Positions 14,071 to 18,988 of a DNA stretch of 33,810 bases are shown in pieces. Position 1 is the first letter of the stretch; each line of letters opens with the position of its first letter. The stretch covers positions 1-33,810 of the forward strand of contig NW_021836242.1 in the NCBI RefSeq assembly GCF_006345805.1, given 5' to 3'. The position numbers and the translations under genes were made by a program. Below the pieces are notes generated by a model. That model saw nothing but the letters and a program-made list of their open reading frames with translations. It had not been told where the DNA came from and searched no databases. Source of the stretch: Octopus sinensis (taxonomy: Eukaryota).

Positions 14071-14358
14071 CTCGCTCAAACACACACACACACATAAAAT
14101 GCATACACAGCAAACCCGTTGGAACGTATTAAACCTGATCATAAAACCGATTCATATCAATAACAAATATGTTACTGCAAAGACATATGCACCGGAAAGA
14201 GATTCTGTGGAACAAATCGACTGCGCGAAACTTGGAAAAGGTGCGAAACTGTGCAAGAACTTTACTTTTGTAGTATACAATAGGCGCATTATTCTGCATT
14301 ATTGGCTGGAGATTATGATCAATATAGTGCTGTAAAGCAGAGTTTTTCAGCCACCTGT

Positions 14359-14951
14359 TCTGGGCCCGGTTGATATCTGGGCCATGGATCATTTCTGAGC
14401 CGCCGGTCAATCCTGGGCCGCCGGTCACTTCTGGGCTGCCGGTCACTTCTGGGCTACCGGTCACTTCTGGGCCACCGGTCACTTCTGGGACGCCGGTCAC
14501 TTCTGGGCGGCTGGTCACTTCTGGGCTGCCGATCACTTCTGGGTCATCGATCATTTCTGGGTCATCGATCATTTCTGGGCCTTCGGTCATTTCTAGGCCA
14601 CCAATCATTTCTGGGCCGCCAATCATTTCTGAGCCGCCGATCATTTCTGAGCCGCTGATCATTTCTGAGCCGCCGATCATTTCTGGGCCACCGGTCACTT
14701 CTGGGCGGCCGGTCACTTCTGGGTCATCGATCATTTCTGGGCCTTCGGTCATTTCTGGGCCGCCAATCAATTCTGGGCCATCGATCATTTCTGGGACGCC
14801 GATTATTTCTGGGCCGCCGATCATTTCTGGGCCGCCGATTATTTCTGGGTCACCGATCATTTCTGGGCCGCCGATCATTTCTGGGCCGCCGACCATTTCC
14901 CGGCCGCCGATCATTTCTGGGTCACTGATTATTTCTGGGCCGCCGACCATT
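14359..14951 (+). repeat. 18-bp minisatellite (GATCATTTCTGGGCCGCC consensus), ~32 units
   Basis: Direct reading; gives the GPEMIG / ISGPPI hexapeptide ORFs. Confidence 0.95.
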
Positions 14952-17879: not shown

Positions 17880-17942
17880 AATATATCAGTACAGAAGTAC
17901 AGACACACACACACACACACACAAATATATGTGTATATATAT

Positions 17943-18148
17943 AACTAAAAATAAGGGTGTCTGAGAGACACCACCATGTGGAAATAGCAGTCAAAACCCT
18001 GACTTTAAAAACCACGTTAAATGTTCATATCGTACCATGAGATAAGACTCTCATGGTACGATATGAACATTTAACGTGGTTCTTAAAGTCAGGGTTTTGA
18101 CTGCTATTTCGAAATGGTGGTGTCTCTCAGACACCCTTATTTTTAGTT
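17943..18148. repeat. Foldback palindrome 1: 100-bp arms, 6-nt loop
   Basis: 17943-18042 is the reverse complement of 18049-18148 with 3 mismatches by eye; loop TAAGAC. Confidence 0.97.
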
Positions 18149-18256
18149 GTAAAAAAATTATTACTTTTGTACGGTATTTTTTCCCATGCTGGCCACTTGA
18201 TAATGTTGATATTATCCTTATTTATAAATGTATATATATATATATATGTGATCTCT

Positions 18257-18449
18257 TGAGCACCACCAGCAAAAATATTTTTTTCCTCTGTCTTCCCTTC
18301 TCGGGATCTTTCCTTCTCCTTTTTTCCGACGAAGAGCTCCGCTCGAAACGTTAAACCCTCCTTCCCTTCTTTCCTGAGCGTCAAATAATACTTTAATTGT
18401 TCCACGTCCTCACGTTGCTGTGTTTTTTACTGTGTTTTTTTGTTTGGAT

Positions 18450-18453
<4 letters not shown>
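18257..18453 (+). mobile_element. Hammerhead-like module, direct-repeat copy 1
   Basis: About 6 differences from 18729-18924. TTT-CCGACGA(18326-18332)-A-GAGC-TCC-GCTC-GAAA-CG-TT-AAA. Confidence 0.7.
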
Positions 18454-18492
<39 letters not shown>

Positions 18493-18506
18493 ATATTCGT
18501 ATTTCA

Positions 18507-18709
18507 AAATAGAAAATTACCCTTTAACAGGTAATCTTACATGCTAGAAATAGCGGCCAACACGGGCCAAAAACCACAATTTTATAGCAAATTTCGAAGA
18601 TTTTTATTTTTCATTTACTTCGAAATTTGCTATAAAATTGTGGTTTTTGGCCGTGTTGGCTGCTATTTCTAGCATGTAAAATTACCTGTTAAAGGGTAAT
18701 TTTCTATTT
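18507..18709. repeat. Foldback palindrome 2: 93/92-bp arms, 18-nt AT-rich loop
   Basis: 18507-18599 vs 18618-18709, 2 mismatches and 1 indel by eye. Confidence 0.97.
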
Positions 18710-18728
18710 ATATATATATATATATATA

Positions 18729-18920
18729 TGAGCACCACCAGCAAAAATATTTTTTTCCTCTGTCTTCCCTTCTCGGGATCTTTCCTTCTCCTTGTTTCCG
18801 ACGAAGAGCTCCGCTCGAAACGTCAAACCCTCCTTCCCTTCTTTCCTGAGCGTCAAATAATACTTTAATTGTTCCACGTCCTCGCGTGCTGTGTTTTTTT
18901 CTGTGTTTTCTTGTTTGGAT

Positions 18921-18924
<4 letters not shown>
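18729..18924 (+). mobile_element. Hammerhead-like module, direct-repeat copy 2
   Basis: Direct repeat of 18257-18453 at offset 472, flanked by (TA)n. Confidence 0.7.
18794..18828 (+). ncRNA. Minimal (short stem III) type-I hammerhead ribozyme candidate with U4C core variant
   Basis: GTTT-CCGACGA-A-GAGC-TCC-GCTC-GAAA-CG-TC-AAAC: stem I GTTT/AAAC, stem II GAGC/GCTC, palindromic ACGT, GUC cleavage triplet. Confidence 0.65.

Positions 18925-18988
<64 letters not shown>

Follow-up and report, generated by a model that had tools for sequence, protein, structure and literature searches.

Putative Penelope-type stubs of three repeat families share one (TA)n repeat in the genome of Octopus sinensis

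The window analysed here is the entire 33.8-kb contig NW_021836242.1 of Octopus sinensis (33,810 nucleotides), while searches covered the 2.72-Gb genome. Two palindromes and two copies of a short module alternate at 17943–18924, with (TA)n between all units of the cassette; the coordinates and sequence of these elements and of both hammerhead-like motifs were confirmed in the window. Palindrome 1 has its arms at 17940–18151 (the 100-bp arms 17943–18042 and 18049–18148 are 97% complementary). It consists of an inverted arm of a repeat family designated B, on the minus strand at 17940–18048 with an untailed 3' end (+46 to +155 from B's predicted cut), and a forward arm plus 3' tail on the plus strand at 18051–18232 (+54 to about +232), which starts downstream of the B hammerhead. 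The tail of this element, at about 18152–18232, had previously been described as a spacer. Beyond a (TA)n target tract (18233–18245) lies copy 1 of the module, a solo pseudo-LTR (pLTR) of family A on the plus strand at 18246–18453. Its start has been shifted from 18257 to about 18246 as a refinement, and its 5' end coincides with the most frequent boundary, which lies about 108 nt before the predicted cut. It carries a minimal type-I hammerhead motif with a U4C core (18322–18356, plus strand), a 3-bp stem I and a predicted cut after 18352 (GUU).

A (TA)18 tract (18454–18489) is followed by palindrome 2 (arms 18507–18709, 93 bp, 96.8%), composed of an inverted arm of family C without the distal tail (18490–18599, minus strand, +42 to +153 from C's predicted cut) and a forward arm, likewise untailed, that starts downstream of the C hammerhead (18601–18709, plus strand, +25 to +136). 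A further (TA)n tract (18710–18728) leads to copy 2 of the family A pLTR (18729–18924, plus strand), the 5' end of which is about 12 nt shorter than that of copy 1, and a (TA)32 tract (18925–18988) closes the series. Copy 2 contains the same kind of motif (18794–18828, plus strand; U4C core, 4-bp stem I), with the predicted cut after 18824 (GUC). The modules, compared over 18257–18453 and 18729–18924, are 97% identical, and their core motifs (18326–18352 and 18798–18824) are 472 nt apart. GUC at 18824 is a private change in copy 2, the family A norm being GUU.

A 33-nt module motif has 378 exact matches in the genome and the palindrome motifs have 97 and 183, while reversed controls have none, so that chance sequence can be excluded for modules and palindromes alike. 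An assembly artefact was also ruled out, as the arms differ at three positions each and many loci have the same architecture. The stretch comprises four short fragments from three repeat families within one TA repeat, and the insertions were probably independent.

In each module the preliminary description had seen a Penelope-type minimal type-I hammerhead whose stem III is the palindrome ACGU, and the motif anatomy agrees with this: the extra nucleotide 9a, the G10.1-C11.1 pair, the palindromic 15.2-16.2 and the short stem I are all present, stem II has 4 bp and stem III amounts to ACGU and nothing more. In pLTRs of Penelope-like elements (PLEs), minimal hammerheads with one additional base behind A9 and palindromic 15.2-16.2 are described as the norm, and such pLTRs as mostly solo, truncated copies (PMC4209133). 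The core reads CCGACGA in both window copies, as in 105 of 137 A-like motifs, and U4C is thus family-wide; the canonical CUGANGA is absent from both copies and from most of family A. U4C is reported to lower activity considerably in vitro, yet still to have supported a viroid in vivo (PMC3088659). An Rfam scan of the stretch returned no hammerhead match at E<=1, only microsatellite-driven miRNA noise, and no covariation was found in the hammerhead stems within family A. Between A and its sister families there is one compensatory stem-I pair (G-C 112, C-G 12), stem II being partly fixed by the search pattern. Among 40 family A copies the hammerhead accumulated 0.026 substitutions per site compared with 0.032 and 0.012 in the flanks, and it is therefore no better conserved than its surroundings.

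The 196-bp module is the pLTR of an autonomous EN+ PLE (family A): it is found on both sides of an ORF encoding a reverse transcriptase (RT) and a GIY-YIG endonuclease (EN). In one long copy, L082, this frame lies about 4 kb upstream of the module, with (CA/CATA)n between. When the matches of a genome search with the L082 endonuclease DNA were fetched, 14 of 20 stretches (two of which overlap) had the module 3' of the ORF and on its strand, and in all three copies checked further upstream it also lay 5', directly before the 5'UTR/ORF. DKG and YIDD motifs are present in the ORF, where a C-x4-C-x2-C linker precedes the C-terminal GIY-YIG. Pfam recognised RVT_1 and GIY-YIG, each with an E-value of 0.0018 and under the curated cut-offs; every copy read is frameshifted, and the first of them gave no RT match in Pfam. 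Among 8000 candidates scored, 60 homologues of 785–1339 aa were found at E<=0.001, the best 54% identical, with RVT_1 in most and GIY-YIG in many. A CX2-5CxxC linker between RT and EN is reported for the Neptune clade (PMC8557442), and by its linker family A may belong to this clade.

Copies of family A end almost uniformly, 65 of 69 having their 3' end within +1 to +9 of one site, and no inverted copy occurs in samples of 69 and 70. The 5' ends have a strong mode 106–116 nt upstream of the predicted cut, maybe a transcription start or a microhomology hot spot; 39 of 69 copies begin 101–120 nt upstream and run through the site uncut. Several variants were seen in passing. The (CA/CATA)n-rich tract between ORF and pLTR, 1.5–6 kb long, accompanies the element and differs greatly in length among copies (L123–L142). 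L216 (G000:C2:21507500-21511000) is an internally deleted A element (pLTR, 1.8 kb of 5'UTR/ORF, pLTR) and possibly a non-autonomous derivative. Direct module-module tandems without a palindrome occur at L173 and L193; the two copies at L193 have an identical 5' junction, making duplication at the DNA level likely.

The palindromes recur elsewhere in the genome, both as single arms and as foldbacks whose centres vary. They are 5'-truncated inverted copies of two ORF-less, hammerhead-bearing families, B and C. Longer copies extend upstream into a type-I hammerhead of their own with a 6-bp stem I, a long stem II and a palindromic stem III of 8–9 nt. The window palindromes start 25–54 nt downstream of the predicted B and C cuts and therefore lack this hammerhead. 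The C core is canonical in all 23 motifs (the pattern required C-Y-G-A-N-G-A; all have U4), and stem II contains a compensatory pair (A-U 15, G-C 6). Among 22 B motifs, position 4 is U in 10 and C in 12, a compensatory pair is C-G in 14 and U-A in 7, and 17 have a C-A mismatch at the base of stem II. Natural B and C units measure 471 and 483 bp (range about 470–485 bp), with 34–35% GC and no long frames, the longest stop-free frames across a unit pair being 100 and 54 codons.

Units of both families are joined tail to head. In 20 of 28 C loci the tail of a previous unit stands before the start of the unit (found with a query lacking the tail; two pairs are the same or duplicated loci), and nothing other than tail, (TA)n or an inverted arm stands there in any of the 28. 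Most B loci also have a previous tail upstream, a proportion biased by a query that spanned the junction. For each family there is one dimer with two complete hammerheads, spaced 483 and 461 nt apart. B and C thus agree with the definition of non-LTR retrozymes by sequence in bioRxiv 10.64898/2026.07.22.740005, resemble those of PMC7229834 and may be called retrozyme-like elements. A tblastn search of 121 fetched loci, mostly of B and C, gave hits in only three, and the unit alignments do not extend into them. RT/EN fragments near three one-armed B or C copies were treated as separate insertions, as (TA)n tracts intervene. The fetched loci (about 1.17 Mb) also contain 54 variants of the hammerhead motif; these represent a dozen families or more, and stem III is palindromic in almost all of them. 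Several of them have a long stem II and may be further retrozyme-like units.

The alternation of modules and palindromes had suggested that the cassette itself is a mobile retrozyme-like unit. This is not what the genome holds. A module DNA search (2208 candidates, 40 scored) found neither palindrome within 1.5 kb of any of the 29 other best-scoring copies fetched. Exact-motif searches with 378 and 924 matches provided two samples ordered by position. In the first, 68 of 70 loci contributed 69 copies (the slightly shifted anchor was missing from two loci, and five places among the top copies were skipped); one module has a family C arm within 650 nt, and none has a family B arm. The second, of 70 copies with one duplicate place skipped and partly overlapping the first, has a B copy of 84% identity within 520 nt of one module. 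In the reverse direction, a module-like match lies within 1.5 kb in one of 30 C loci and three of 30 B loci, all of them sister families at 73–84%. These samples of 24–70 copies come from families with hundreds to thousands of members. By exact-match search, the junction between palindrome 2 and the module occurs once in the genome, here. A search for a module end within 30 nt of palindrome 2 gave no matches, a weak result given that the window's own tract is 36 nt. The two window modules differ in their 5' ends and have four and two private differences from the column majority, none shared. Four contig-level sequencing runs contain no contig spanning the cassette and, as contigs cannot show ends, support no conclusion. 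The association of modules with palindromes, which the preliminary description had itself named as decisive, is missing. Its Penelope-like context holds for the module as a PLE pLTR, while the palindromes belong to two separate hammerhead-bearing families. The retrozyme idea fits these parents rather than the module pair, and the cassette is a commonplace group of PLE-type stubs that have a (TA)n target in common; its parts are of known kinds and it is not a mobile unit. That the two A hammerheads lie 472 nt apart is probably a coincidence arising from target preference.

The foldbacks mostly follow a simple rule. In all 30 B loci the 3' end is at one of two sites about 87 nt apart, and C mostly uses two sites about 75 nt apart. 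Once second hits on the same insertion had been removed, 15 of 24 B insertions had two arms of at least 30 nt, and each of these 15 pairs a tailed with an untailed arm. Among C insertions 15 of 28 are inverted, 12 of these keep the rule and in three the second arm ends elsewhere. Palindrome 1 keeps it; palindrome 2 breaks it, neither arm being tailed (+136/+153). Reported PLE insertions include an inverted copy that is truncated 5', and a tail at one of the ends (PMC8557442, PMC3846280), their bias towards (TA)n is published (PMC8557442, PMC3846280, PMC11167929), and a purified PLE enzyme is described as cutting both strands of AT-rich DNA and initiating at two positions inside the RNA, one on either side of the tail (PMC11167929).

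We favour a process, with a probability of roughly 0.87, in which the four fragments of A, B and C were put independently into (TA)n by Penelope-like target-primed reverse transcription. The enzyme would nick (TA)n and start reverse transcription within the RNA, at fixed AU-rich sites. In family A such priming would yield a direct stub. For B and C, two primings would take place on opposite target strands, one at the tail end and one 70–90 nt upstream, which would explain why only one arm of a foldback is tailed; the two cDNAs would then be joined head-to-head at their truncated ends. The stem III duplex is weak in A (-1.7 kcal/mol) compared with B (-7.6) and C (-11.2), and its coincidence with the lack of inverted A copies hints at a connection, a lead drawn from three families. 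We infer the order and independence of the four events; (TA)n permits no reading of target-site duplications. Local duplication of one module, followed by mutation, is still conceivable as an alternative to independent module insertion.

Three other explanations were weighed against target-primed insertion. That module, hairpin and module constitute a retrozyme-like unit, with its pair of hammerheads cleaving as a dimer in cis to give a 472-nt circle copied in trans, appears very improbable to us. Both motifs have the minimal-hammerhead anatomy, the nested geometry is possible, dimeric minimal hammerheads show low but detectable cleavage (PMC4209133), and the 5' ends of A cluster 3' of the cut (12 against 1). 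Against this, there is no sign of amplification, with a single period and no second hairpin copy; the core is U4C, reported to be considerably less active in vitro (PMC3088659); the outer stem I has three A-U pairs; and the A hammerhead shows neither better conservation than its flanks nor within-family covariation. Folding does not discriminate: a constrained cis dimer costs 19.7 kcal/mol relative to the free ensemble (19.9–26.8 with shuffled spacers), and genuine B and C dimers cost 12.1 and 18.9 as well. Cis-cleavage of a read-through transcript at this locus, with its U4C core, is conceivable but has no support.

It is even harder to believe that the palindromes are MITEs, derived from TA-targeting DNA transposons, beside modules that are unrelated retro-stubs. 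Foldbacks of about 200 bp, TA-flanked and multi-copy, would fit that description. Their centres, however, vary by copy, many copies have a single arm, the 70–90 nt tail is on one arm, and longer copies reach the hammerhead and then the previous unit's tail. The palindrome copies lack the fixed, symmetric terminal inverted repeats of a MITE, and a cut-and-paste element with such repeats would not show this variation. An unlikely reading, although one we take more seriously, is that B and C are pLTRs of undetected autonomous PLEs, their tail-to-head arrangement arising from self-insertion and the foldbacks from self-priming. Partial tandems are reported for PLEs, which may also nick their own pLTR (PMC11167929), head-to-head palindromes have been ascribed in a published proposal to self-priming from an antisense template (PMC3846280), and the biased B junction query leaves this reading some room. 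It is opposed by the 28 of 28 C loci without other sequence before the unit start, where by contrast 16 of 70 A copies extend more than 300 nt upstream, and by tblastn hits confined to 3 of 121 loci, with unit alignments stopping short of them.

Whether the hammerheads cut can be approached through 5' ends. Near the predicted cut, A has 12 ends in 0 to +39 and one in -40 to -1; within 40 nt downstream and upstream, B has 10 and 2 (p 0.039) and C has 13 and 1 (p 0.002). This excess hints at cleavage or at RT stalling. As stalling at the folded motif, together with microhomology to (TA)n, could produce the same picture, it is a hint of cleavage only. In family A, the U4C core, the 39 of 69 copies running through the cut and the unremarkable conservation of the motif speak against cutting, and for a published PLE hammerhead cleavage is reported not to be required for insertion. 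We tentatively entertain a bolder possibility, that B and C are circular-RNA retrozymes caught integrating Penelope-style. A dimeric PLE enzyme would use the two strands at a (TA)n nick to prime one RNA each, starting at the tail of the first RNA and at the internal site of the second; the two RNAs might be joined by their palindromic stem III, and the 5'-end pile-up in A, B and C would be the footprint of cleavage in vivo even with U4C.

Family A resembles the EN+ PLEs of the Neptune type, as described in PMC4209133 and PMC8557442, in its pLTR-ORF-pLTR order, its RT with DKG and YIDD, its C-x4-C-x2-C and C-terminal GIY-YIG, its minimal type-I hammerhead (extra base after A9, G10.1-C11.1, palindromic ACGU) and its mostly solo, truncated copies in (TA)n. 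It differs from these descriptions in the family-wide U4C, the 4-bp stem II, the (CA/CATA)n-rich 3' region of 1.5–6 kb, an essentially single 3' end and the lack of inverted copies among the 69 and 70 sampled. The B and C foldbacks share with the inverted pLTR-plus-tail insertions of PLEs, as reported in PMC3846280, PMC8557442 and PMC11167929, a head-to-head, 5'-truncated structure, a tail on one arm and AT-rich targets. Their tails are longer (70–90 nt against a published 30–40), the inserted RNA has no ORF and most copies are only an inverted stub. With the metazoan non-LTR retrozymes, as characterised in PMC7229834 and bioRxiv 10.64898/2026.07.22.740005, B and C have in common ORF-less tail-to-head units of 34–35% GC with one type-I hammerhead each. 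In contrast to these, they are 470–485 bp long (150–450 bp is quoted), are dispersed as stubs of one or two units or as foldbacks rather than in long arrays, have a long stem II and a palindromic stem III of 8–9 nt, and are known here from genomic sequence. The window cassette, neither repeated nor tandem nor multi-copy, is not such a unit. No description of families A, B or C was found in the literature searched, where the supplements of PMC4209133 and of the bioRxiv study may list related invertebrate families; the main text of a 2026 octopus repeat annotation (PMC13282606) contains neither "hammerhead" nor "ribozyme".

The literature consulted leaves open how animal retrozymes enter genomes and whether the hammerheads of PLEs cleave in vivo. 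Both questions become testable with B and C, whose natural insertion products number in the hundreds and show two fixed 3' start sites, copies longer than one unit and foldbacks tailed on one arm. The two families are also a warning: in such genomes a short palindrome flanked by TA can be wrongly annotated as a MITE.

Three other features of the window lie outside the cassette. At 7230–7685 on the minus strand there is a 152-codon frame which we take to resemble the C-terminus of a PIF1/Helitron helicase, and for which Pfam gave no hit. Two fragments of module sister families, with related minimal hammerhead motifs, are located on the minus strand at about 2821–2918 and 4169–4266. Finally, an 18-bp tandem repeat in 33 copies (14132–14950, minus strand) has an open frame rich in Gly-Gly-Pro-Glu.
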